Shown in pieces: positions 2,881 to 33,894 of a DNA stretch of 40,644 nt (within the stretch, counting starts at the first letter, position 1; the number at the start of each line of letters is the position of its first letter). Origin of the DNA: a virus (taxonomy: Duplodnaviria; Caudoviricetes). The stretch covers positions 1 to 40,644 of the IMG/VR virus record IMGVR_UViG_3300045526_000169; one strand, written 5' to 3'. The notes under the pieces were generated by a model. The model had not been told where the DNA came from and searched no databases. It saw only the letters and a program-made list of their open reading frames with translations. The position numbers were made by a program, and so were the translations under genes.

Positions 2881-2911
2881 CAAATATACTAATAATTTGT
2901 TATTAAAACAA
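2881..2911 (-). promoter_or_regulatory. Bacteroidota sigmaA-type promoter
   Basis: TTG (2909-2911), 20 nt, TATATTTG (2881-2888, perfect -7 element). Confidence 0.65.
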
Positions 2912-4264
2912 CTTTTTCAACTTTTTCTTGAACATATTTCTATATATCTCATTGTACATCTTAACTGGATTGCCATAAAGGTCCTCAATATACTCTGGAA
3001 TCTTGGCACTCCCTTGAAAAGTTTCTTTGGTGCGTTTAATAATGTACTCGGGAACGATTCCCTCTGATACTTCTTTCAATATCTTTTTACCAACTGGATT
3101 TTCTTCTCTAGTTGCATTGATACCAAACTCTACAATATCTTTATCAATAAAAGGTAGTCTACATTCTATATGGTATTTCATAAACACCATGTTTGCTCGT
3201 CTAAAGTTTCCACGTGCCATCTTATCAACTTGTTCTTTCTTCTTCTCTCTCCACTCTTCATAAGTCTTGCACTTGGATGCCTGAATTGCAAAGTTCCCAT
3301 ATCCACCAAAAATCTCATCTGCTCCCTCTCCAGACAATACAACCTTAAATCCATCTTCTGAAATCTTCTTTGCTAATGGAAGATTCAATAAAGAGATTTC
3401 AATTTGTGCTTTCATATTACTTTCAATACTCTTAACAGTATCTTCAATATCTTTCATTGTTGGTTTATCTATAAAGACGGGTCTCAACTCAACACCAAAA
3501 TCTTTACAAACCTTTTGTGCATTCTTGTAGTCATTTGATTCTTTATCGAATACAGCAGTATATGCAACAATATCTGGATTGTACTTCTTAGCAATACCAA
3601 GAATCAAACTGGAATCAAGACCTCCACTAATCAAACAACAAAGTGGTACATCTGATACTAATCTTTTTCTAACTGCATTGTCGATTACTTCTAAACTAAA
3701 TTGTTTATAGTCAGGTGTTACATAGTCGTAGTATTGTACGAACTCGTTGGTATTGAAATTATAGTAGTTTGCTTTAGGGAACTCTGCCATTTGTTTTTGG
3801 AATCCCTTTTGTTCTGAACTCCAAAGAAAACCTTGTCCTGACTTTTCATAGAACAATGGAATCTTTCCATATCTATCTCTTACAAGTACTCTATTATTTC
3901 CACCATCTGCATAGAAGAAACAAAACATACCATCAATAACTTCTAAAGTCTTTTCTACTCCATAAGTAAAAAGCATTTGCGAAAGAACCTCAGTATCTGA
4001 ATTAGTACGAAATTCATATTCACTTAAATATTCTTCTCTTAACTCTTTGTAGTTATAGATTTCTCCATTAAAAGCAAGAATAGTATCCTCGAACTCAAAT
4101 GGTTGGTTCGCAGCAGATACTGGGTCTATAATAGATAGTCTGGTATGACCAACTTGAAAGTCACCCCACTCGACAACCTTTTGGCAATCTGGTCCACGAT
4201 GTTTTAATCTATCAATTACAATAGGTTCATCTTCGTATTTATATTTTCCTAGTAGGCCACACAT
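2903..4264 (-). CDS. asnB: AsnB-family glutamine-hydrolysing amidotransferase, candidate DNA-base amidating enzyme
   Basis: MCG N-terminal nucleophile, HRGPD, GHTRLSIID, QPF, FNGEIYNY, SDTEV, RDRYGKIPLFY, PP-loop SGGLDSS, VLSGEGADEIFGGY, RLPFID. Confidence 0.9.
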   Translation of the reverse strand: MCGLLGKYKYEDEPIVIDRLKHRGPDCQKVVEWGDFQVGHTRLSIIDPVSAANQPFEFEDTILAFNGEIYNYKELREEYLSEYEFRTNSDTEVLSQMLFTYGVEKTLEVIDGMFCFFYADGGNNRVLVRDRYGKIPLFYEKSGQGFLWSSEQKGFQKQMAEFPKANYYNFNTNEFVQYYDYVTPDYKQFSLEVIDNAVRKRLVSDVPLCCLISGGLDSSLILGIAKKYNPDIVAYTAVFDKESNDYKNAQKVCKDFGVELRPVFIDKPTMKDIEDTVKSIESNMKAQIEISLLNLPLAKKISEDGFKVVLSGEGADEIFGGYGNFAIQASKCKTYEEWREKKKEQVDKMARGNFRRANMVFMKYHIECRLPFIDKDIVEFGINATREENPVGKKILKEVSEGIVPEYIIKRTKETFQGSAKIPEYIEDLYGNPVKMYNEIYRNMFKKKLKKLF

Positions 4265-4265
4265 A

Positions 4266-5132
4266 TTATAAGTCTTTTAAAATTAACTTGTTTATTTTTT
4301 TAGTACCAATTCCCAATTTTCGTTTTGCATCTTCTTTAGATTCGTATTGAACTCCATTGATAGTAATTCTGAAATCTCTCCACTTTTCACCTGCAATCAA
4401 TCTCTTCAATTTTTTATCTCCTATTCCAAAATATTCTTTGGCATGCTTCTTACTATTAAACTCAATTCCGTTGATAGTTATTTTAGTATTGTCATAATTA
4501 GGCATCTTGTTCTTTATCTTAGTCCCTGCTGATACGCCAACTAAATCAGGTCTTCTATCAAATTCTTCTTTGGTAACTTGGAATGTATTTCCATCTCGGT
4601 CTTTACATGAAACTAATCCAATTGTATTACCAACTAAATCGGGTCTCCTATCAAATTCTTCTTTGGTAACTTGTAAGATATTTCCATCTTGGTCTTTGCA
4701 TGTAACTTTTCCACTTCCAATAAAAACTAATTCACCTGATATATATCTTGCGTCATTAACAGAAACAGATAATATATTATCTTGTCTATCTTTTACAGTA
4801 ACTATTCCTTTTCCATAATCATGTCCATAATCAAATCCACATGCAGCGTTTTTCTGATTATAACACTTCTTGATATTCTTAATATCATAGATTACTAAAA
4901 ATCTTCGCTCAAATTCATAAGCATCTTTTCGTGTCTTGAAGTATCTTAGTCTTTCATGTTTGAAGTTCTCGGGTCCATATTTCTTAATTGCATGTCTTAG
5001 TGCAACACCACTTCCCATATAGTTCTTTCGGATACCACTTCCGTAATAGAATCTACCATTAATAAGATTGGTTGTTTTATAAAAGTAATAGGGCGTTTCA
5101 GGACTGTAATCCTTTGAGATTAAATATTTCAT
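4266..5132 (-). CDS. free-standing GIY-YIG (Seg-like) homing endonuclease 1
   Basis: YFYKTTNLINGRFYYGS, YMGSG, KYGPENF, AYEFE, YNQK; C-terminal repeats and ITINGxxF/Y helix-turn-helix-like modules. Confidence 0.85.
   Translation of the reverse strand: MKYLISKDYSPETPYYFYKTTNLINGRFYYGSGIRKNYMGSGVALRHAIKKYGPENFKHERLRYFKTRKDAYEFERRFLVIYDIKNIKKCYNQKNAACGFDYGHDYGKGIVTVKDRQDNILSVSVNDARYISGELVFIGSGKVTCKDQDGNILQVTKEEFDRRPDLVGNTIGLVSCKDRDGNTFQVTKEEFDRRPDLVGVSAGTKIKNKMPNYDNTKITINGIEFNSKKHAKEYFGIGDKKLKRLIAGEKWRDFRITINGVQYESKEDAKRKLGIGTKKINKLILKDL
4537..4706 (-). repeat. 93-bp (31-aa) intragenic tandem repeat
   Basis: VTCKDQDGNILQVTKEEFDRRPDLVG and VSCKDRDGNTFQVTKEEFDRRPDLVG, plus a degenerate third copy upstream. 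Confidence 0.85.
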
Positions 5133-5210: not shown

Positions 5211-6305
5211 TTACAAGTCTTTCAATATAGTATTGTAGATATTCTCTGCAACTGCTTTGAGCATGAGTGGAGGTACAGACCTCCCAAGCCTCTCCCAACG
5301 GCGAGAGTTTGATACGCTCTCATCCCCAAGATAATAGTCATATGGAAACGAACTCAATCTCTTAACTTCTTCTAATGTCAATGTTCTTGGTTCATTCCAA
5401 TGGTACAAACTTGGTGTTGCTATAATAGTAGGACAAATTCTATCTTTGTCTAATCTTATTCTAGTTATACCTGTAGTATGTATTTTCAATCTTTGGCCCA
5501 TATCGTAGAAAGATTCATTTGGTAATGTTTTGTGCCAATACTCTTCATATGTTTCTCCCATGCTACAAGTATTTCCACTATATGGAATATCTGCAATTGT
5601 TTCTTCTATTGTTTCTTTGCACTCGTTAATTGGTGGGTAACTAATTCTTTTATCAATATCTTTTCTAACACCAATAAAAATAGTTCTTGCTCTGGATTGT
5701 GGAACTCCATAATCTTTTGAATTGATTACTTTGAATCTAACATTGTAACCACAATCAACTAATGTATGGTATATAGTATTTTGCCAATATCCAAATAAAT
5801 CAACTTCTTCTGAACCCAATAGGTCTGCTGCAGCACCAATAGTCAATCCCTTAACGTTCTCTGCTACAAATACTTTAGGTTGTAATTCTTTCAATATTCT
5901 ACTGAACTCGAAAAACAAGTCATCTGTTCTTTGTTCTAAGTCACTGTACTTCTTAACCCTTCCCCATCCCTTTTCTCTTAATCCAGCAGTACTAAAACTT
6001 GCACAAGGTGGACTACCATCTAAAATATCGAGTTCGCCTCGTTTAAGTCCTATTTGCTTTAATATTGCTTCTCCTGTTAATTCTCTTATATCTTGGGGAA
6101 AGATATGTGTATCTGGATAGTTAGTACCATAGACATGTTGTGCTAATGGTACGAACTCGTTTATTGCAAGTACCTTTCCACCTGCTAATCTGTAACCAGT
6201 AGAAGAACCACCTCCACCTGCGAACAAGGAAACAACATTGAATAGATTTTTACTACTCTGTTTCTTTACATAGTCTAAATCGAATATATATGGTTTATTG
6301 CTCAT
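5211..6305 (-). CDS. C5-cytosine DNA methyltransferase homologue 4, candidate carboxymethyltransferase
   Basis: FAGGGG, GSPPC, ENV, QSRAR; motif X ERLGRSVPP. Confidence 0.92.
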   Translation of the reverse strand: MSNKPYIFDLDYVKKQSSKNLFNVVSLFAGGGGSSTGYRLAGGKVLAINEFVPLAQHVYGTNYPDTHIFPQDIRELTGEAILKQIGLKRGELDILDGSPPCASFSTAGLREKGWGRVKKYSDLEQRTDDLFFEFSRILKELQPKVFVAENVKGLTIGAAADLLGSEEVDLFGYWQNTIYHTLVDCGYNVRFKVINSKDYGVPQSRARTIFIGVRKDIDKRISYPPINECKETIEETIADIPYSGNTCSMGETYEEYWHKTLPNESFYDMGQRLKIHTTGITRIRLDKDRICPTIIATPSLYHWNEPRTLTLEEVKRLSSFPYDYYLGDESVSNSRRWERLGRSVPPLMLKAVAENIYNTILKDL

Positions 6306-7406
6306 TATATGGTTTTAATATTGTATTATATATATGTTCTGCAACTGCTTTAAGAAGTAATGGTGGAACTGCTCTACCAAGTCTTTCCCATTGTTTATTA
6401 AGTCTTTCTCCTAAAAAATAATCATCAGGAAAACTAGATGCTCTAATACATTCTTCAATAGTAAGTGTTCTTGGTTCATTCCAATGATATGCAAATGCTC
6501 GTGTCATAATAGTAGCACAAGGTTTGTCTTTATCTAATCTAGTTTTTACCATTCCGGACATTTTCTTACCTATTCTTTCTCCCATATGCATAAAGGTTTC
6601 ACCTGGTTTGCATAACCCCCATTTGTATTTATCCAAATCTGCCATTGGTAAAGTATTTCCACTAAATTCTAAATCTTTAGTAGCTTCAGAAATAGAATAA
6701 ATATTTTTATTACCTTCGGGATATTGTATTTTAATATCTATATCATTTCGTACTCCTATAAAAATAGTTCTTGCTCTGGATTGTGGAACTCTATAATATT
6801 TTGCATCTAATACTTTAAAACGAACTTTATATCCAGCAGATACTAAACTATGGTAAATTGTATTTTTCCAATATCCAAATAAATCAACTTCTTCTGAACC
6901 CAGTAGGTCTGCCGCTGTACCAATAGTCAATCCTCTAACATTTTCTGCAACAAATACTTTAGGTTGTACTTCTTCTAATATTCTTACAAATTCAAAGAAC
7001 AAGTCATCTGTTCGTTGTTCTAAGTCACTATATTTTTTAACTCTCCCCCAACCTTTTTCCCTAAGTCCTGCTGTACTAAAACTTGCACAAGGTGGACTAC
7101 CATCTAAAATATCCAATTCACCCCTTTTAAGTCCTATTTGCTTTAATATTGCTTCTCCTGTTAATTCTCTTATATCTTGCGGAAAGATATATGTATCTGG
7201 ATAGTTTTTAGCATATACATCTTGTGCAGCAGGTACGAATTCGTTTATTGCAAGTACCTTTCCACCTGCTAATCTATATCCAGTAGAAGAACCACCTCCA
7301 CCTGCGAACAAGGAAACAACCGTAAACAAATTCTTTGCAGATTGTTCTTTTACATAATTTAAATCATAGATAAATGGTTTATTGCTCATTATATGGTTTT
7401 AATATT
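6290..7406. repeat. 33-bp perfect direct repeat at two methyltransferase gene junctions
   Basis: ATGGTTTATTGCTCATTATATGGTTTTAATATT at 6290-6322 and 7374-7406, encoding the overlapping ILKPYNEQ* and MSNKP. Confidence 0.85.
6295..7389 (-). CDS. C5-cytosine DNA methyltransferase homologue 3, candidate carboxymethyltransferase
   Basis: FAGGGG, GSPPC, ENV, QSRAR; motif X ERLGRAVPP. Confidence 0.92.
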   Translation of the reverse strand: MSNKPFIYDLNYVKEQSAKNLFTVVSLFAGGGGSSTGYRLAGGKVLAINEFVPAAQDVYAKNYPDTYIFPQDIRELTGEAILKQIGLKRGELDILDGSPPCASFSTAGLREKGWGRVKKYSDLEQRTDDLFFEFVRILEEVQPKVFVAENVRGLTIGTAADLLGSEEVDLFGYWKNTIYHSLVSAGYKVRFKVLDAKYYRVPQSRARTIFIGVRNDIDIKIQYPEGNKNIYSISEATKDLEFSGNTLPMADLDKYKWGLCKPGETFMHMGERIGKKMSGMVKTRLDKDKPCATIMTRAFAYHWNEPRTLTIEECIRASSFPDDYFLGERLNKQWERLGRAVPPLLLKAVAEHIYNTILKPYNEQ

Positions 7407-8632
7407 TTATAGTAAATATTTCGTGCTACTGCTTTAAGAAGTAATGGTGGTACACTTCTTCCAAGTCTTTCAAGTTGTTGGTTGTAACTTCCATCTAAAT
7501 AATAATCACTTGGAAAACTACAAATCTTCTTGAACTCTGGAATAGTCATCTTACACAATTTCTTATAATCTTCGTGTTCTTTATACTCAACTCCACTAAA
7601 GTCTTTCTTTGCTAAATATCCCTCTTTGTGTAAATCAGGTACCTCATGCATTGGCAAATCATCATAAGTATAAAAACTCTCTCTATCTTTCTCTGGAATC
7701 ATTTCTAAAGTCATACCTTTTCTAAAAATTCTATAGTCTGCTTTCGGACCTATGCCACCAGTTGTTACGGTATAGCAAACATCTTTCGGCAATCTCATTC
7801 TATTGAACTCTTCACTAAATCCTTTCTTACAACTAATAAATTCCATATCAGGTAGTACATCTTTTAAAGTAACCTTTGTATCAAATTCTTTTGGAAAACT
7901 TGGCATACCTTTAATATCTTTTCTAACTCCAATTATAATCAATCTGGTTCTTGTTTGTGGTACTCCATAGTCCTCTGCATTGATTAACTTGTATTTTACT
8001 TTATATCCAAGACTTCTAAAGATATACATAATAGTATCTTCTCTATTGTCATTAGGGTCATTAGAACCAAGTAGTTGTAAATTTGGTTCTACTGCTAGAC
8101 CTCTTACATTCTCAGCAACAAAAACCTTTGGTTGCAACTCATCAAGTATTCTAATGAACTCAAAGAATAAATCATCAGTTCTTTGTTCAATACCCTCTGA
8201 ATAGTGTCTTGCCTTACTTCTCTCTTCTTTGTTCTTTGCAAATTGGTACTTACCGTTGATTGTACTAAAACTTGCACAAGGTGGACTACCATCTAAAATA
8301 TCAAGTTCACCTCTCTTTAGTCCTAGTTGGTCTAAAATCATTTGACCAGTTAATTCTCTTATATCTTGTGGAAAGATATGAGTATCTGGATAGTTCTTAC
8401 TATAAGTATTCCTTGCAGACTCTACGAACTCATTGATTGCTAGTACTTTACCTCCTGCTAATCTATAACCAGTGGAGGACCCTCCTCCACCGGCAAACAT
8501 TGAAACTACATTGAATAGTTCTTTGGAACTTTGTTTTCTTAGAAATTCCATATCATAGAAATATGGAAACTTTAATTCATCTTCTGGGATATCTTTATAC
8601 CATGTATCTTTCAATAAACTTCTCGCCATCAA
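7379..8632 (-). CDS. C5-cytosine DNA methyltransferase homologue 2, the most divergent paralogue
   Basis: FAGGGG, GSPPC, ENV, QTRTR; motif X ERLGRSVPP; N-terminal extension and longer variable region. Confidence 0.92.
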   Translation of the reverse strand: MMARSLLKDTWYKDIPEDELKFPYFYDMEFLRKQSSKELFNVVSMFAGGGGSSTGYRLAGGKVLAINEFVESARNTYSKNYPDTHIFPQDIRELTGQMILDQLGLKRGELDILDGSPPCASFSTINGKYQFAKNKEERSKARHYSEGIEQRTDDLFFEFIRILDELQPKVFVAENVRGLAVEPNLQLLGSNDPNDNREDTIMYIFRSLGYKVKYKLINAEDYGVPQTRTRLIIIGVRKDIKGMPSFPKEFDTKVTLKDVLPDMEFISCKKGFSEEFNRMRLPKDVCYTVTTGGIGPKADYRIFRKGMTLEMIPEKDRESFYTYDDLPMHEVPDLHKEGYLAKKDFSGVEYKEHEDYKKLCKMTIPEFKKICSFPSDYYLDGSYNQQLERLGRSVPPLLLKAVARNIYYKILKPYNEQ

Positions 8633-8670
8633 TTATTAATCTTTATTATTAAACACGAGAAAACTCTATT

Positions 8671-9750
8671 TTATTTTACCTTTGACAGAATATCTTCATA
8701 TATTTTTCCAATAACATACATATAACAGGGAGGCGCAACTGCTCTCCCAAGACGTTCTATCTTATCTTTATAGTTTTCTCCAAGATAATAGTCATCTGGA
8801 AATCCCATAATTCTAATACACTCTTTTACAGTAAACTTTCTATCATCCCAATGTGCAATACTTGCAGCAGAAATATTACCAGCACTTTGTGTCAAGGTAC
8901 CTGCATAACTATCAGGTCTTTGTTTCATCAAAGAGAAATATTTATCTGATTGCTCTCCTGGTTTCAATTTCTTCAACTCTTCTCCGATAGAGTATCTTGA
9001 GATATCACATTCGTCTAATTCTTGTTGTGTATGTTCTAAGTCAGCAAATGCATCTTCTAGTGTTACTATTCCACCCAATGGGTCAGCATAACTAATTCTA
9101 GTATCTATATCATTTCTAACTCCAATAAAAATAGTTCTTGACCTTGACTGTGGAACTCCGTAGTCTTTTGCATATAGTACTTTAAAACGAACTTTATATC
9201 CAGCAGATACTAAACTATGGTAAATTGTATTTTTCCAATATCCAAATAAATCAACTTCTTCTGAACCCAATAGGTCTGCTGCACTACCAATAGTAATACC
9301 TTTTACATTTTCTGCGACAAATACTTTAGGTTGTACTTCTTCTAATATTCTAACAAACTCAAAGAATAAGTCATCTGTTCTCTGAGCAGAGTCTGAATAT
9401 TTTTTAACTCTACCCCAACCTTTTTCTCTAAGACCTGCTGTACTAAAACTGGAACAAGGTGGACTACCATCTAAAATATCAAGTTCTCCCCTTTTCAATC
9501 CGAACTGGTCCAGAATCATTTTACCTGTCAACTCTCTTACATCTTGTTTAAAGATATGAGTATCTGGATAGTTCTTGTGGTATGCATCTTGTGCGGCAGG
9601 AATAAACTCATTGATACCAAGTACCTTGCCCCCTGCCAATCTATATCCAGTAGAAGAACCACCTCCACCGGCAAACAAAGAAACTACATTGAATAGATTC
9701 TTAGCAGATTGCTCTTTTACGTATTTTAAATCGTAGATAAATGGTTTCAT
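8671..9750 (-). CDS. C5-cytosine DNA methyltransferase homologue 1, candidate carboxymethyltransferase
   Basis: FAGGGG, GSPPC, ENV, QSRSR; motif X ERLGRAVAP. Confidence 0.92.
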   Translation of the reverse strand: MKPFIYDLKYVKEQSAKNLFNVVSLFAGGGGSSTGYRLAGGKVLGINEFIPAAQDAYHKNYPDTHIFKQDVRELTGKMILDQFGLKRGELDILDGSPPCSSFSTAGLREKGWGRVKKYSDSAQRTDDLFFEFVRILEEVQPKVFVAENVKGITIGSAADLLGSEEVDLFGYWKNTIYHSLVSAGYKVRFKVLYAKDYGVPQSRSRTIFIGVRNDIDTRISYADPLGGIVTLEDAFADLEHTQQELDECDISRYSIGEELKKLKPGEQSDKYFSLMKQRPDSYAGTLTQSAGNISAASIAHWDDRKFTVKECIRIMGFPDDYYLGENYKDKIERLGRAVAPPCYMYVIGKIYEDILSKVK

Positions 9751-9753
9751 ATA

Positions 9754-10425
9754 TTAAATCTCTTTTACTAGTAACCAAGACTTAAATGCTAAACTTTGCC
9801 AAAATGGTTGCACAGTTTCAAATCCCGCTTCTTTGAACAACTTAATATTCTGTGATTCTTTTAGTGGTTTCATAATAAACCTAAGGTCTACTTGCTTTGT
9901 AAGAATCTCATTTGAAGTAAAACTCTTTCTTTTGAAATCATAGTGGGCAAAGTTGAATACATCTTGAATAAATCCATCTTCAAGAAAAATCTTTTCTGAT
10001 ACTACAATTGCTCCACCCGGCATTAAGTTGTCGTACATTTCTTTTAGTACTTTTCTTCTTAATGCAATTGGTAAAAATTGCAATGTAAACAAACAAGCAC
10101 CAAAAGAATACTCTTCTCCTTTCCAGTCATTCAAATCCATATTGATAACATCTTCTCTTCCCTCTGTCAAGTTTTCTGCTTTATCAATACCGATATACTT
10201 AACATTAACATTCTTGTTATGTTTCTTTAGTACTCTAATTAGATTACCCGTACTACATCCAATATCATAAACCTTAGTATTATCTTTAATAAAGTATGTA
10301 CTGATATTTTTAATGTGTTCAATTAAACCTGAGTAGTTTTGAATAGACAAGTCGATATGATTATCAAAGTCTTCAATTGTATCAAAACTAAATTGTCTTA
10401 ACTCTTCTTCTTTTTCTTGTGTCAT
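9754..10425 (-). CDS. cmoA: CmoA-like carboxy-S-adenosylmethionine synthase
   Basis: Aligned by eye to E. coli CmoA as recalled: FDNHIDLSIQNY (FPDMIQRSVPGY), VYDIGCSTG (VYDLGCSLG), FTLQFL, GGAIVVSEK (GGALVLSEK), HYDFKR (HHDFKR), EAGF...WQSLAF. Confidence 0.82.
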   Translation of the reverse strand: MTQEKEEELRQFSFDTIEDFDNHIDLSIQNYSGLIEHIKNISTYFIKDNTKVYDIGCSTGNLIRVLKKHNKNVNVKYIGIDKAENLTEGREDVINMDLNDWKGEEYSFGACLFTLQFLPIALRRKVLKEMYDNLMPGGAIVVSEKIFLEDGFIQDVFNFAHYDFKRKSFTSNEILTKQVDLRFIMKPLKESQNIKLFKEAGFETVQPFWQSLAFKSWLLVKEI

Positions 10426-12681: not shown

Positions 12682-12942
12682 TTAATGTTCAATAATTAAA
12701 GTCAATAAAACTCCAGATTCTTTTATAAGTCTATGGTACCTATTCTTACCTACAACAATCGTACCAAAAAGTTTTGTATTAATTGGTAATTCATTATCAA
12801 ATTGGAATTTAAATTTACCAAATGGTAAAGTACGAACTATTCTATCTTTCTCGTCATAGTGCCATTTGTATAGACTACTATCATTAGAATAAAATACTCT
12901 AAAAATTAGATTGAATATTTTTAATTGGAAATACGGTTTCAT
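12682..12942 (-). CDS. small cupin-like phage protein
   Basis: WHYD...FQFDNELP...YHRLIK two-histidine pattern. Confidence 0.55.
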   Translation of the reverse strand: MKPYFQLKIFNLIFRVFYSNDSSLYKWHYDEKDRIVRTLPFGKFKFQFDNELPINTKLFGTIVVGKNRYHRLIKESGVLLTLIIEH

Positions 12943-14135
12943 TATCTATATTTATTAGATAGTTTTATATATTGATAGTTTGGAAAGTTTTTTGAATATA
13001 CTCTATATTTTATCTTTTCTCTTTTCAATCCCGTTGAATTAACTGCTTCCTTATATCCTAAGTATTCAATTCCATCAATTATAATAATAGTATTAGTAAG
13101 TAGTTTAGATATATTTTCTTTAGTATATTTAGTATGAGTTTTTCCTTTTTGAGATTCAGACATCTTCTTCTTTGATTCTTCTGTATGCTGTTTACCCGTC
13201 TGTGATTTTGAAATTTTTTCTTTTATTTTATTTGCTTTTTCTTCTCCGTGTATATCCTCCATAGACTTTCCTTTATATATATTAGGTCCATTTGACTTAC
13301 CTTTTTTATTATCGGATATTTTTTTCTTTGTTTCTTTACTGTGTTTAAATCTACCCAATTTTGAATTACTTCGTTTTTGGAACTCCAATTCCTTTAATTT
13401 GTTTTCAATAAAGGGATACATGTTCTTAAAAGAAGTTATAGAAAAGAATAATCTAATTTTATGTATAAGATTATATATATCACTATCCAATACTATATTC
13501 TCGATATTTATATTATCTAAATATAATAAATATTCCTTAATTTTAGACTCTTTCTGTAAACGACACCGCTTTTTTGCAGATATTGACATTTTCTCAATTG
13601 TACTTGGTTCAAACTTTCTATTTTTTATCTTTAGTTTTATTTCATCTGCACGTTCCTTGCCATAAACTTCTTCTATTGTTTTTCCTTTGGTTGGTTTTTT
13701 TCCTTTGGATATTTTTTGTTTGATTGTATCTGCTTTTTTAGTACCATATGCTTCTTCCAAGGTCTTTCCATGATGAACAAAACGTTTGTTCAAATATTCT
13801 TCTTTTTCTAACTGCGTTAATAAATTCCAATTATTTCCACCAATTGCTTCATCTTTTAAGTTATATGACTCGTTGAGAGAACTGATTTTATACAATTTTA
13901 AAAATTTGTCTTCGAATAGAAATGCTTCTTCTCGGGTCTCGAAATATCTTAGTCTTTCATGAGTAAAATATTCTTTACCATATTTCAATAGTGCAGTTTG
14001 AAATCTGCTACCGCTTCCGAGATAATTTTCATCACTTCCACTTCCATAGTAGAACTTTCCGTTAATAAGATTGGTTGTTTTATAAAAGTAATAGGGTGTT
14101 TCAGGACTGTAATCCTTTGAGATTAAATAATTCAT
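12942..14135 (-). CDS. free-standing GIY-YIG homing endonuclease 2 with NUMOD3-type motifs
   Basis: N-terminus nearly identical to endonuclease 1; HSKETKKKIS, HTEESKKKMS, GKTxEExYG repeats. Confidence 0.85.
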   Translation of the reverse strand: MNYLISKDYSPETPYYFYKTTNLINGKFYYGSGSDENYLGSGSRFQTALLKYGKEYFTHERLRYFETREEAFLFEDKFLKLYKISSLNESYNLKDEAIGGNNWNLLTQLEKEEYLNKRFVHHGKTLEEAYGTKKADTIKQKISKGKKPTKGKTIEEVYGKERADEIKLKIKNRKFEPSTIEKMSISAKKRCRLQKESKIKEYLLYLDNINIENIVLDSDIYNLIHKIRLFFSITSFKNMYPFIENKLKELEFQKRSNSKLGRFKHSKETKKKISDNKKGKSNGPNIYKGKSMEDIHGEEKANKIKEKISKSQTGKQHTEESKKKMSESQKGKTHTKYTKENISKLLTNTIIIIDGIEYLGYKEAVNSTGLKREKIKYRVYSKNFPNYQYIKLSNKYR

Positions 14136-21166: not shown

Positions 21167-21248
21167 GATTAAATAAAGAAAGAACCATCATCGGACTGCA
21201 ATCCTAGGTTCTTTCAAAAAATAATTAAAAATTATGAATTATTTAATC
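21167..21248 (+). promoter_or_regulatory. homing endonuclease leader element, copy 3
   Basis: GATTAAATAA 21167-21176; outer stem 21178-21186/21207-21215; inner GGA-CTGCAA-TCC; complement TTATTTAATC at 21239-21248. Confidence 0.75.
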
Positions 21249-22145
21249 CATAAAGATTATAGTCCAGAAACTCCCTATTACTTTTATAAAACTACAAATT
21301 TATTGAACGGAAAGTTCTATTATGGAAGTGGAAGCAAAGAAAATTATATCGGTAGTGGTGTAGCACTAAACGGAGCAATCAAGAAATACGGAAAAGACAA
21401 TTTCAAACACGAAAGACTAAGATACTTCAAAACCCGACAAGATGCATATAATTTCGAGGATAGATTTTTAAAACTATTCAATTTAAGACGTTTAAAAAAG
21501 GCTTACAATTTAAAGAACAACGGAAGAGGTCCAGATGGATATAGTCATACCGAGGAAACTAAAGATAAAATTAGTAATTCTATAAAAAATCTATACAAAG
21601 ATATCGAATACTATAATAATTTTTGTAATTCTTTTGTTGGTGAAAAAAATCCATTCTATGGCAAAAAACATACAGAAGAAACAAAACATAGATTGAGCGA
21701 AAGTAAAAAGGGAATAGAGACGAATTCACTAAAGTGTTTTGTTGATATATATGGAGAAAAAGAGGGAACATTTAGATTCAATGAATGGAATCGAAAGAAA
21801 TCAGAAGCACTAAAAGGAAGAGAATATTCAGAAGAAACCTTGAAGTTGATGTCCCAAAAGAAACAAGGTGTTTATGATGGAGAAAAGAATCCTATGTACG
21901 GCAAACAACACAAAGAGTCCAGTAAAGCAAAAATGTCCCAAAAGAAACAAGGTGTTTTTGATGGAGAAAAGAATCCTATGTATGGAAAGAGAGGAGATAA
22001 GTCTCCGATAGCAGGTACATATTTGATTGAAGGAGTTATTATTAGTAGTCTTCAAAATGTAGCATTAAAATATAATATTTCAAAAAAGACCGCTATAAGA
22101 AGAATAAAATCTGAAAAGTATCCAGATTGGTTAAAGATATCTTGA
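21234..22145 (+). CDS. free-standing GIY-YIG homing endonuclease 3 with NUMOD3 repeats
   Basis: Same N-terminal family as endonucleases 1 and 2; GEKNPFYGKKHTEETK; two copies of MSQKKQGVxDGEKNPMYGK at 21849 and 21933 (84-bp period). Confidence 0.88.
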   Translation: MNYLIHKDYSPETPYYFYKTTNLLNGKFYYGSGSKENYIGSGVALNGAIKKYGKDNFKHERLRYFKTRQDAYNFEDRFLKLFNLRRLKKAYNLKNNGRGPDGYSHTEETKDKISNSIKNLYKDIEYYNNFCNSFVGEKNPFYGKKHTEETKHRLSESKKGIETNSLKCFVDIYGEKEGTFRFNEWNRKKSEALKGREYSEETLKLMSQKKQGVYDGEKNPMYGKQHKESSKAKMSQKKQGVFDGEKNPMYGKRGDKSPIAGTYLIEGVIISSLQNVALKYNISKKTAIRRIKSEKYPDWLKIS

Positions 22146-25384: not shown

Positions 25385-25464
25385 GATTAAATAAAAAAGG
25401 AACCATTATCGGATTGCACTCCTAGGTTCCTTTAAAAATAATAAATTTTTATGAATTATTTAAT
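25385..25464 (+). promoter_or_regulatory. homing endonuclease leader element, copy 4
   Basis: GATTAAATAA; outer stem 25396-25404/25425-25433; inner GGA-TTGCAC-TCC; complement TTATTTAAT at 25456-25464. Confidence 0.75.
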
Positions 25465-26131
25465 ACAAGAACAAAGTAGATATATTTTCGTATATCAAAC
25501 AAAAAACATAATTAATGGAAAAATCTATATAGGTGTACACAGTACAACTAATTTAGAAGATGGATATATTGGAAATAGTATATATCGACAAAGTGATGTT
25601 GATTCAAGGAAAGAGAAAGTGGGATTAGTTGCAGCAGTTAGAAAATATGGATATGAAAATTTCAAAAGAGATATACTAAAGTTTTTTGATACCGAAGAAG
25701 AAGCATATTTATACGAAGCAGAATTGGTAACAGAAGAGTTTGTAGTAAGAAATAATAATTACAATATAGCAGTTGGTGGAAGAGGTGGTAATACGAGAGC
25801 AGGTTTTACGGAAGAACAAATGATAGATTATAAAAGAAAACTATCCGAAGGTGTACTAAGAGCGAAAGACGAGGGAAGAGGATTTACTGAACAACATTCA
25901 GACGAAACTATAGAAAAACTTAGTATAATTCAAAAAGAAAAAATGAAAGAGATAGTAACAGATGAATATCGAAACAAGTTGAGTAGTGCATCTAAAGAGA
26001 GTTGGAAAAATAGAAAATCATATAAAACTATTATTGTTATAGATGGTATCGAATATGAATCTAAAAGAAGTGCGGCAAATATACTCGGTATTGGCAGAGG
26101 TAGATTAAATACTATAATAAAGAATCAATAA
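25451..26131 (+). CDS. free-standing GIY-YIG (Seg-like) homing endonuclease 4
   Basis: FVYQTKNIINGKIYIGVH, YIG, KYGYENF, AYLYE, YNIAVGG; HSDETIEKLS. Confidence 0.88.
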   Translation: MNYLIQEQSRYIFVYQTKNIINGKIYIGVHSTTNLEDGYIGNSIYRQSDVDSRKEKVGLVAAVRKYGYENFKRDILKFFDTEEEAYLYEAELVTEEFVVRNNNYNIAVGGRGGNTRAGFTEEQMIDYKRKLSEGVLRAKDEGRGFTEQHSDETIEKLSIIQKEKMKEIVTDEYRNKLSSASKESWKNRKSYKTIIVIDGIEYESKRSAANILGIGRGRLNTIIKNQ

Positions 26132-32472: not shown

Positions 32473-32783
32473 TTTCTAAACAATAATCGCAATACTCTGT
32501 TACCAGATATGTCTTCTATAATATTTACTTCTGATACCATTTTATATTGGTCTGCTATACTAACATCTATATCACAAAGTTCTCCTTTCTTGGAAAGAAA
32601 ACCCCCATCAGGACATCTAGATAGAATAATATCAGTATCTTCATATCTAAGATGTACTGAATCGGGTAAACTAGAAATTTCTTCGAGTGGTAACTCATTA
32701 CCGTTTTGCAAGATTAACCTCAGTGGATTTAATGTTATTCTCAATTCTTTTTCTATTTGTATCATCAAGGCTTCCTTTTTCAT
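32469..32783 (-). CDS. hypothetical protein, start uncertain
   Basis: 4-bp overlap with the downstream gene but 86-bp overlap with the upstream glycosyltransferase. Confidence 0.45.
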   Translation of the reverse strand: MKKEALMIQIEKELRITLNPLRLILQNGNELPLEEISSLPDSVHLRYEDTDIILSRCPDGGFLSKKGELCDIDVSIADQYKMVSEVNIIEDISGNRVLRLLFRK

Positions 32784-33894
32784 TTCCTTTTTTTAATGCG
32801 TATTTAAAATATTTTAGTGCTTCTTCAAAGTTTCCAATATAGAATAAAGATACTCCATACATATCATACATTGCCCAATCATATACCATATTTTCTAAAA
32901 ATAAACTTGATGTATTACCAAGTTTCAATTTCTTTAATGCAAGTTTACAAAATTCTATTGCGTTTTTATGCATTTGCTCCTTTTGTAAGTAAGATACTAT
33001 ATTGAAAATATGTTCACATCTATTGTTAGTATCCAACTCTTCGCATTTTAAAAGTTGCATTATGATAAACTCATCGGATTCAAATGTATAATACATCCTA
33101 GATATCATCAATTGAGAATAGTATCTTTCTTCTTGATATCCTCTATTGTCCTTTACTCTTTCTTTGTAATAGTTTATGGACTTTTTTAATAAGTCTTTAC
33201 CTCTTTCAGTATCACCTTGTTGCATTGAGAAATTTCCAGCATCTCGGTAACTCTGACCTAAATAGAATGTCCATCTCGGGTCTTCCCAGTTATTCTTTTC
33301 TTGATAGTTTAAAAGTATTTCTGCATGGTCTTCATATTTCTTAGAAATATCACCTTTCCAAGAATTGCCATCTGGGACAATCTTCATATTACCCAAATCG
33401 AAAATTGCAACCTTACCTCTAGTTTTGTCTTTCTTTCTAAGAATCTCATGAACAGGACCATACCATTCATAGTTGCTACTGAACTTGTAGAATTGAGACC
33501 TATTATAGTTCATATGACCATATTTGCAATTTATCAAATATTCATCTATATTACTATTTGTAGTAAATAATAAATTTAATTTACTTTTACTAAAATCTGG
33601 ATTTAACTCAAGTATCTCATCAGCATCCATCCAGAAACCATAATCCCCTAATTCTTTTCCCTCTTCAATAGACTTGTTTCTACACTCTTCAAAGTTTGTA
33701 AATGGAAAATCTACAATCTTTCCAACAATCCCCTTTGAATCAAAAAAGTTTTTAATTACTTGTTTAGTATTGTCGGTAGAACCAGTATCCACTATACAAT
33801 AAGAATCTAACATCTTATAACAAGACTCAAGAGCACGTTCTATAACATGCTCTTCATCTTTAACTATCATAGTTAAAACTAATCTATTGCTCAT
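32698..33894 (-). CDS. GT2 glycosyltransferase with C-terminal TPR repeats
   Basis: MIVKDEE, VDTGSTDNT, RN, DADE (DxD), WYGPVHE, PRWTFYLGQSYRD; TPR-like helices. Confidence 0.9.
   Translation of the reverse strand: MSNRLVLTMIVKDEEHVIERALESCYKMLDSYCIVDTGSTDNTKQVIKNFFDSKGIVGKIVDFPFTNFEECRNKSIEEGKELGDYGFWMDADEILELNPDFSKSKLNLLFTTNSNIDEYLINCKYGHMNYNRSQFYKFSSNYEWYGPVHEILRKKDKTRGKVAIFDLGNMKIVPDGNSWKGDISKKYEDHAEILLNYQEKNNWEDPRWTFYLGQSYRDAGNFSMQQGDTERGKDLLKKSINYYKERVKDNRGYQEERYYSQLMISRMYYTFESDEFIIMQLLKCEELDTNNRCEHIFNIVSYLQKEQMHKNAIEFCKLALKKLKLGNTSSLFLENMVYDWAMYDMYGVSLFYIGNFEEALKYFKYALKKGNEKGSLDDTNRKRIENNIKSTEVNLAKR

Follow-up and report, generated by a model that had tools for sequence, protein, structure and literature searches.

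A 40.6-kb piece of viral DNA with 30% G+C (IMG/VR record IMGVR_UViG_3300045526_000169; 40,644 nucleotides, all of which we refer to as the window) carries a 7.5-kb cluster in which four tandem genes, cmoX1 to cmoX4, lie beside cmoA and a gene for a cmoY-type ligase. The window is part of a T4-like phage, with genes for sheath, tube, baseplate, clamp loader, and thymidylate synthase. Judged by sequence, the four proteins are CmoX-family paralogs. We consider it probable that these paralogs carboxymethylate C5 of cytosine, likely at four targets; the ligase is predicted to amidate the resulting carboxyl group. The reference for this system is the work of Yang et al. (Nat Commun 2025, PMC12783734) on the CmoA, CmoX, and CmoY proteins from Synechococcus phage S-B43. 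There, CmoA makes carboxy-S-adenosylmethionine (Cx-SAM) from S-adenosylmethionine (SAM) and prephenate, and SpCmoX forms 5-carboxymethylcytosine (5cxmC) at GC and, as the wild-type enzyme, takes only Cx-SAM.

Four CmoX-type proteins share the cofactor pocket of SpCmoX

The array is on the minus strand and consists of cmoX1 (8671..9750; 359 aa), cmoX2 (7379..8632; 417 aa), cmoX3 (6295..7389; 364 aa), and cmoX4 (5211..6305; 364 aa). The initial annotation of the window, made from the sequence alone, had proposed that all four C5-methyltransferases carry Arg instead of Asn in cofactor-binding motif X while the catalytic motifs are intact. A codon check located the Arg of ERLGR in CmoX1 (Arg336, AGA at 8743-8745, ERLGRAVAP), CmoX2 (Arg392, AGA at 7457-7459, ERLGRSVPP), CmoX3 (Arg339, AGA at 6373-6375, ERLGRAVPP), and CmoX4 (Arg342, AGG at 5280-5282, ERLGRSVPP), and the FAGGGG, GSPPC, ENV, and QxRxR motifs are whole in all four proteins. 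In pairwise alignments, ERLGRAV is set over QFGNSVV of M.HhaI, with the Arg on the motif X Asn (Asn304, counted in the alignment), and over ERVGRMV of SpCmoX, with the Arg on Arg350. Two structures that we take to be M.MpeI (4dkj and 8c56) aligned over residues 124-349 only, which left M.MpeI N374 outside the alignment.

All four proteins pass Pfam PF00145, and none is of the canonical type with Asn in motif X (GN[S/A]V; M.HhaI and Dcm). Instead, all four combine SPPC with Arg at the R350 position, the filter by which Yang et al. collected 5,615 CmoX candidates (PMC12783734). A multiple alignment shows all four in agreement with SpCmoX at F25, E47, F48, D69, S95-P96-P97-C98, E156, R200, R202, E346, and R350; the cofactor contacts F25/E47/F48/D69 and the cytosine-binding Glu/Arg residues are invariant among them, and E388 and R392 (CmoX2 numbering) are invariant across 88 aligned sequences. 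Overall identity to SpCmoX is 43% for CmoX1, 41% for CmoX2, 47% for CmoX3, and 49% for CmoX4. The SpCmoX structure 8YF3 is the top PDB sequence match of CmoX1 (E 2.9e-63, about 39 orders of magnitude ahead), and the family profile also picks SpCmoX as the nearest solved structure. A CmoX2 model based on the 88-sequence alignment (predicted local distance difference test score [pLDDT] 78, good for the core, with the recognition region largely at pLDDT <50) has 8YF3 as its top fold match (E 4.3e-28); a model from a two-sequence alignment was unusable (pLDDT 37). With every named contact kept, we regard CmoX chemistry in the window proteins as very likely.

The annotation had further suggested that the Arg pairs with the Cx-SAM carboxylate. 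This is correct: in the 1.9-Å SpCmoX-Cx-SAM crystal structure (8YF3), Arg-350 stands in place of HhaI Asn-304 and touches the carboxymethyl group (PMC12783734). The finding is already published and adds nothing to the 2025 paper. An R-to-N revertant, proposed as a check, would be a weak control for a cofactor switch because SpCmoX R350N uses neither SAM nor Cx-SAM (PMC12783734).

The motif X Arg tracks cmoA

The Arg had also been put forward as a residue-level signal that supports the pathway independently of gene order. As a marker, it held up in that it tracks cmoA in cultured phages; the four copies, however, are not four independent signals, because the genes are paralogs (cores 61-85% identical) and the Arg is family-wide, that is, one inherited change. 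Three homolog scans, seeded with window proteins and therefore biased to the CmoX family, found the motif X Arg in 138 of 138 distinct complete SPPC-type homologs (129 counted by pattern, 7 from printed tails, and 2 from the locus survey), in all cases with Glu four residues before it; for 119 of them, cmoA lay within the fetched locus.

We also compared 11 SPPC-type enzymes of cultured phages, hand-picked from 62 records. Arg and an adjacent cmoA occurred together in four phages (S-B43, TurkishDelight, Mcat8, and PaBG), while the CmoA family phrog_4752 was detected genome-wide in none of the seven with Met, Leu, or Asn and was detected in the positive control, TurkishDelight. Because Met, Leu, and Gly also occur at this position in related enzymes, loss of the Asn alone is not diagnostic, whereas the Arg is. 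The enzymes of Melnitz-3 (Leu; L287:2501-3718, L numbers denoting loci in our survey) and CL131 (Asn; L291:1989-2978) lie on separate branches within the CmoX clade (Shimodaira-Hasegawa-like approximate likelihood ratio test 97/96), both lack the Arg and the preceding Glu, and both genomes lack cmoA. This suggests two separate losses of Arg/Glu along with cmoA, and these enzymes are possible natural reversions to SAM use, which would be useful given that the engineered R350N variant is dead.

Further cmoA-like genes were found outside this set. In Erwinia phage pEa_SNUABM_5 (L295:2935-4628), such a gene lies beside an asparagine-synthetase-like gene with no annotated C5-methyltransferase within 3 kb, and the transferase may be elsewhere or of another kind; CmoA matches occur in 48 Erwinia phage records. 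Among 185,579 prokaryote genomes, there were four confirmed matches (L282-L285), three with adjacent cmoA (two in Endozoicomonas and one in Congzhengia), which are perhaps prophages.

The array is multicopy, and its recognition regions are discordant with its cores

Of 203 fetched loci, 189 had one cmoX match, 14 had two, and none had more. Two-copy loci number 11 after removal of a duplicate contig (L081), a canonical Asn enzyme (L033), and a split gene (L202); 4 of the 11 are very similar, and many loci are short, so copy counts are minimum values. The window has close kin in six loci (CmoA 73-78% or CmoY 75% identical); five of these have at least two cmoX genes, one of them a cmoX2 ortholog, and the sixth breaks off within its first copy. 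Viral scans with CmoA gave no additional kin (none in one scan and one, already known, in another). L155, the sole kin locus complete across the site, carries cmoX2 and a copy with a fifth recognition type. In the kin records L210 and L211, which are 27-28% complete, the same flanking genes are present with no cmo genes between them. Both also contain a sister family of SPPC C5-methyltransferases with Met at the Arg position (GMSVPP; L210:12860-18810 and L211:13592-14716); in L210, the tandem comprises four such enzymes and is interrupted by two canonical Asn enzymes, and this family is frequent in Flavobacterium and Bacteroides phages (46 records).

CmoX2 is the most divergent copy, has a longer recognition region, forms a separate clade in the core tree, and occurs in all kin loci that extend far enough to reveal it. 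Its orthologs in L001, L155, L156 (start only), L157, and L182 are 66-72% identical, with recognition regions 56-60% identical. CmoX1 has orthologs in kin L001, L156, and L159 (76-79%), and its recognition region is 70% identical to those of L001, L156, and the non-kin locus L172. The CmoX4 ortholog in L157 is 78% identical overall and 77% in the recognition region. For CmoX3 we found no close ortholog, the nearest recognition regions being 41-45% identical (CmoX4 and L157). In the window, CmoX1, CmoX3, and CmoX4 share 77-85% identity in their cores, which are 61-67% identical to that of CmoX2, while recognition regions are only 22-41% identical, a figure that depends on a fixed rule for cutting the regions and is no proof of different targets. 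Across five ortholog pairs, nonsynonymous divergence of the recognition region (pN 0.16-0.28) is below synonymous divergence (pS 0.52-0.69), indicating purifying selection.

Cores and recognition regions have different nearest relatives. The core of CmoX4 is nearer to CmoX3 (85%) than to its ortholog (81%), and the reverse holds for its recognition region (41% versus 77%). CmoX1, CmoX3, CmoX4, and five kin cores form one clade (support 95) that holds three recognition types. Runs of identical codons were clustered in all four within-window pairs tested (29, 19, 18, and 15 codons; p 0.0015, 0.0025, 0.048, and 0.034) and in none of seven cross-genome pairs (p 0.13-0.66), and the longest identical DNA shared within the window reaches 92 bp.

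Two 33-bp direct repeats, read directly and identical to each other, lie at the cmoX2/cmoX3 overlap (7374..7406) and the cmoX3/cmoX4 overlap (6290..6322); recombination between them would drop cmoX3. In sequencing run X1, the unique parts of cmoX2, cmoX3, and cmoX4 are on contigs of equal depth (69-71). Contigs of sequencing runs X3 and X4 join 6305 to 7386. In two of four runs, low-depth contigs (about 4-5) join cmoX2 straight to a cmoX4-like start, one contig joins a cmoX4-like start in register to a cmoX1 body, and one contig of sequencing run X10 has unrelated sequence after cmoX2; four further runs gave no listed joint. The variant joins may come from related strains rather than from the same phage. 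We judged an assembly artefact unlikely in view of the distinct recognition regions, the equal depth, and the multicopy kin. Taken together, the core-recognition discordance, codon runs, repeats, and variant joins fit an array that likely evolves by duplication, core exchange, and gain or loss of copies.

Word depletion offers candidate targets

RGCY is tenfold depleted in the window (observed/expected ratio [O/E] 0.10). In the window, GCY codons for Ala come after a purine in 11 of 225 cases and after a pyrimidine in 120 of 330 (p 4e-20). RGCY O/E is 0-0.17 in cmo-bearing kin, 0.33 in L210 and 0.32 in L211; it is never below 0.72 in 65 less closely related, partly redundant loci that are free of cmo genes over the stretch fetched. 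Of 55 single-copy CmoX lineages, two are below 0.35: S-B43 and one that is SpCmoX-like. The deficit could be a footprint of the CmoX2 target or avoidance of a host restriction site. Regarding likeness to the GC target of SpCmoX, the window recognition regions are 23-27% identical to that of SpCmoX, and the RGCY deficit is partly present in kin without cmo genes at the site.

As a positive control, GC was below 0.8 in 3 of 7 lineages near SpCmoX versus 1 of 48 others (p 0.005), the thresholds for word depletion having been set after the data were seen. With the same caveat, CA was below 0.7 in 4 of the 9 lineages nearest CmoX1 versus 6 of 46 others, a weak association (p 0.047). CA/TG was below 0.7 in 10 of 55 single-copy CmoX lineages (down to 0.27; including L002, L018, L172, and L176) versus none of the 65 loci without cmo genes, and the CmoX1-like lineages among the depleted ones are enriched in TA and CG, a hint of carboxymethyltransferases specific for CA.

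Other words were less informative. CmoX2-like targets could not be read from word depletion, as the words missing from L026, L162, and L165 differ even though these loci share one recognition loop; no single-copy locus of at least 4 kb has a recognition region more than 34% alike to that of CmoX3 or CmoX4; and CG depletion (0.45), which also occurs in many PNK-anchored loci that lack cmo genes, was rejected as an unspecific target sign. The window has no GATC on either strand (0 versus about 131 expected under a Markov model), with O/E of 0.17-0.67 in kin and 0.03 in PTm1, which suggests a host GATC-directed barrier outside the reach of the modification.

cmoA, the ligase gene, and the remaining window genes

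The gene for the predicted carboxy-SAM synthase, cmoA (9754..10425, minus strand; 223 aa), lies 3 bp from cmoX1. Its product has bacterial CmoA/YecO as best PDB matches (E 3.2e-23), matches phrog_4752 (E 9.6e-56), is 38% identical to the assayed S-B43 CmoA, and scores E 3.1e-32 against TIGR00740, under the bacterial equivalog cutoff (112 versus 193 bits). In PDB, PHROGs, and NCBIfam alike, CmoA is the best-matching family.

The cmoY-type gene (2903..4264, minus strand; 453 aa) encodes an amide ligase with an N-terminal glutaminase domain (GATase and Asn_synthase domains). The MCG start, HRGPD, RLSI, NGEIYN, SDTE, and SGGLDSS motifs make both the Ntn glutaminase and the synthetase domain look intact. 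The only cultured-phage match at E<1e-20 is gp124 of the Streptomyces phage TurkishDelight (32% identical over the full length), which is UniRef100_A0A7T0Q3R0, the example of a glutaminase-bearing ligase cluster for which ammonia use was predicted (PMC12783734). The window protein has the hallmarks of glutaminase-bearing CmoY: an N-terminal Cys glutaminase fused to a synthetase domain, encoded beside cmoX and cmoA. It falls in this uncharacterized class, and we lean, if only slightly, toward 5-carbamoylmethylcytosine, the predicted product.

Between cmoX4 and cmoY is a passenger gene resembling those for homing endonucleases (4266..5132, minus strand; phrog_314, E 5e-22). It moves among kin, with a 49% identical relative between cmoA and cmoX1 in L001. 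There are four homing-endonuclease-like genes in the window, the others at 12942-14135, 21234-22145, and 25451-26131. A GT2 glycosyltransferase gene (32698-33894, minus strand; phrog_13126, with a weak SunS-family match) lies 22 kb from the cmo cluster. The clamp loader is closest to those of phages PAU (38%), PTm1 (36.5%), and Lak (34.6%), all of which are distant. Promoter and terminator scans of the window were at chance level (40 versus 53 expected and 6 versus 3.4), and the share of window words in two RNA runs was only 0.05.

A proposed pathway and its alternatives

In the pathway that we propose, CmoA would make Cx-SAM from SAM and prephenate, as shown for S-B43. Each CmoX would use its PC cysteine to attack the target cytosine at C6, with the Cx-SAM carboxylate held by the motif X Arg, as shown for SpCmoX. 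The four recognition regions, by their divergence and conservation, would direct the enzymes to four target sets, which we think quite likely. CmoY would then adenylate the carboxyl group and add glutamine-derived ammonia to give 5-carbamoylmethylcytosine, in line with the prediction for this ligase class (PMC12783734). Finally, the marks would block host restriction enzymes, as SpCmoX modification does for HhaI (PMC12783734), and four marked sequences would probably serve escape from several such enzymes. As a more tentative extension, the array may be a library of swappable cassettes, with a resident CmoX2 and up to three cores trading recognition regions by recombination, that places 5-carbamoylmethylcytosine at four motifs simultaneously, some of them other than GC (a CA-containing one for CmoX1 and an RGCY-like one for CmoX2).

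Besides the fixed cutting rule for the recognition regions, several observations weigh against this pathway. In sequencing run X1, which may be the window's own sample, cmoX1 and its flanks are shallower (53 and 45-48), and no listed contig spans either repeat junction by 31 letters a side. CmoX3 has no selection estimate since it lacks an ortholog. The window is not CA depleted (O/E 1.07), nor are CmoX1-bearing kin, while CmoX1-like non-kin often are. The ligase scores over the NCBIfam asparagine synthase cutoff TIGR01536 (285.5 versus 267.1 bits), kin L155 has no cmoY at the cmo site, and glutaminase-type ligases gave no soluble protein in the hands of Yang et al. (PMC12783734). cmoA does not always go with the Arg, because in a Staphylococcus SPbeta-like phage (L296:2959-4658) it adjoins a non-SPPC C5-methyltransferase with Gly in motif X; this enzyme would slip through the published CmoX filter unnoticed and may represent a second route to Cx-SAM use. 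Both trees are quick searches without bootstrap.

The amidation step has the likeliest rival. Because it passes the asparagine synthase cutoff, the ligase could be a metabolic asparagine synthetase, or it could add another amine, so that the DNA keeps 5cxmC or another adduct instead of the simple amide; we regard this as possible but doubtful. The best PDB match of the ligase is AsnB (E 4.6e-46), and the endonuclease gene separates it from the array; together with its absence from L155, these points fit a product other than the amide. The genomic setting speaks for the amide: the sole strong cultured-phage match sits between cmoX and cmoA in TurkishDelight, a glutaminase-bearing homolog is likewise placed in five more loci (L062, L064-L066, and L068), and the ligase is missing at the site in L210 and L211, which have no cmoA or cmoX there either.

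As to the array, all four proteins might be Cx-SAM enzymes with the same or an overlapping target (e.g., GC, as for SpCmoX) that are kept for dosage in a large genome. An RGCY deficit that is common to the window and its kin and rare among single-copy lineages would fit, as would the homogenization of the cores, but recognition regions so unlike each other and that of SpCmoX, and each conserved across genomes, argue against a shared target, and a single CmoX is enough for the 214-kb S-B43 genome, where 75% of GC sites are modified (PMC12783734). We therefore judge this unlikely. Similarly improbable is that at least one copy is a recent, inactive, or dispensable passenger and that only cmoX2 does lasting work. 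The variability of the array (two copies in L155, the cmoX2 to cmoX4-like joins, and the run X10 contig), the lack of a CmoX3 ortholog, and the lack of CA depletion in the window are what such turnover would leave; against it, all four genes have open frames that preserve every catalytic and cofactor residue, and CmoX1, CmoX2, and CmoX4 are under purifying selection relative to their orthologs, recognition regions included. That the proteins are ordinary SAM-dependent 5-methylcytosine methyltransferases with an incidental Arg is very improbable, even though Pfam and NCBIfam annotate them as C5 methylases and engineered N-to-K variants retain SAM-dependent methylation (PMC12015181), for the Arg and cmoA occur together and wild-type SpCmoX, which is 41-49% identical to these proteins and shares their pocket, takes only Cx-SAM (PMC12783734).

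Relation to known systems and significance

The proposed pathway has its closest counterpart in S-B43, which shares with the window cmoA, an SPPC + Arg transferase with all named contacts, and an asparagine-synthetase-like ligase in one cluster of a T4-like phage. The window differs in having four transferases rather than one, with recognition regions only distantly related to the GC-reading one of SpCmoX, and in its ligase: SpCmoY adds glycine and has no glutaminase domain (PMC12783734), whereas the window protein, 24% identical, has one and is thus not of the synthetase-only type. TurkishDelight gp123-125 comprise an Arg-bearing CmoX, the full-length glutaminase-bearing ligase, and CmoA, but this phage has a single cmoX with ParB-like genes upstream, and its ligase product is uncharacterized. 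The engineered carboxymethyltransferases M.MpeI N374K and M.MedI N377K likewise have a Cx-SAM-favoring basic residue in place of the motif X Asn; they are man-made and CG specific, have Lys rather than Arg, and can still use SAM (PMC12015181). Target recognition domains have been described as moving between the mod genes of bacterial Type III systems (Furuta and Kobayashi 2012, PMC3467074). The array resembles that case in that recognition regions and cores are discordant and the likely route is recombination at conserved motifs; those genes are at separate bacterial loci, whereas the window has a tandem phage array of C5 carboxymethyltransferases. Multicopy cmoX arrays were not mentioned in the literature searched, in which subscription papers are thinly covered, or in the passages of PMC12783734 returned by term searches; they may sit unremarked in its 5,615-sequence set.

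What is new is a four-copy, probably target-diverse array with a glutaminase-type ligase, a modest variant of the published system and a convenient test bed. It bears on two questions left by PMC12783734, namely which sequences other CmoX enzymes target and what the glutaminase-bearing ligases produce: one cluster offers four natural enzymes that differ in recognition region but share nearly one chassis, and a new candidate of a ligase class for which expression failed. 5cxmC resists A3A deamination, and carboxymethylating enzymes are used in sequencing methods (PMC12015181). If the targets differ, the array would enlarge the small set of such enzymes and would show phages retargeting hypermodification against changing restriction systems. 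If the array is indeed a library of swappable cassettes, word depletion in genomes could reveal what CmoX enzymes target in thousands of uncultured phages.

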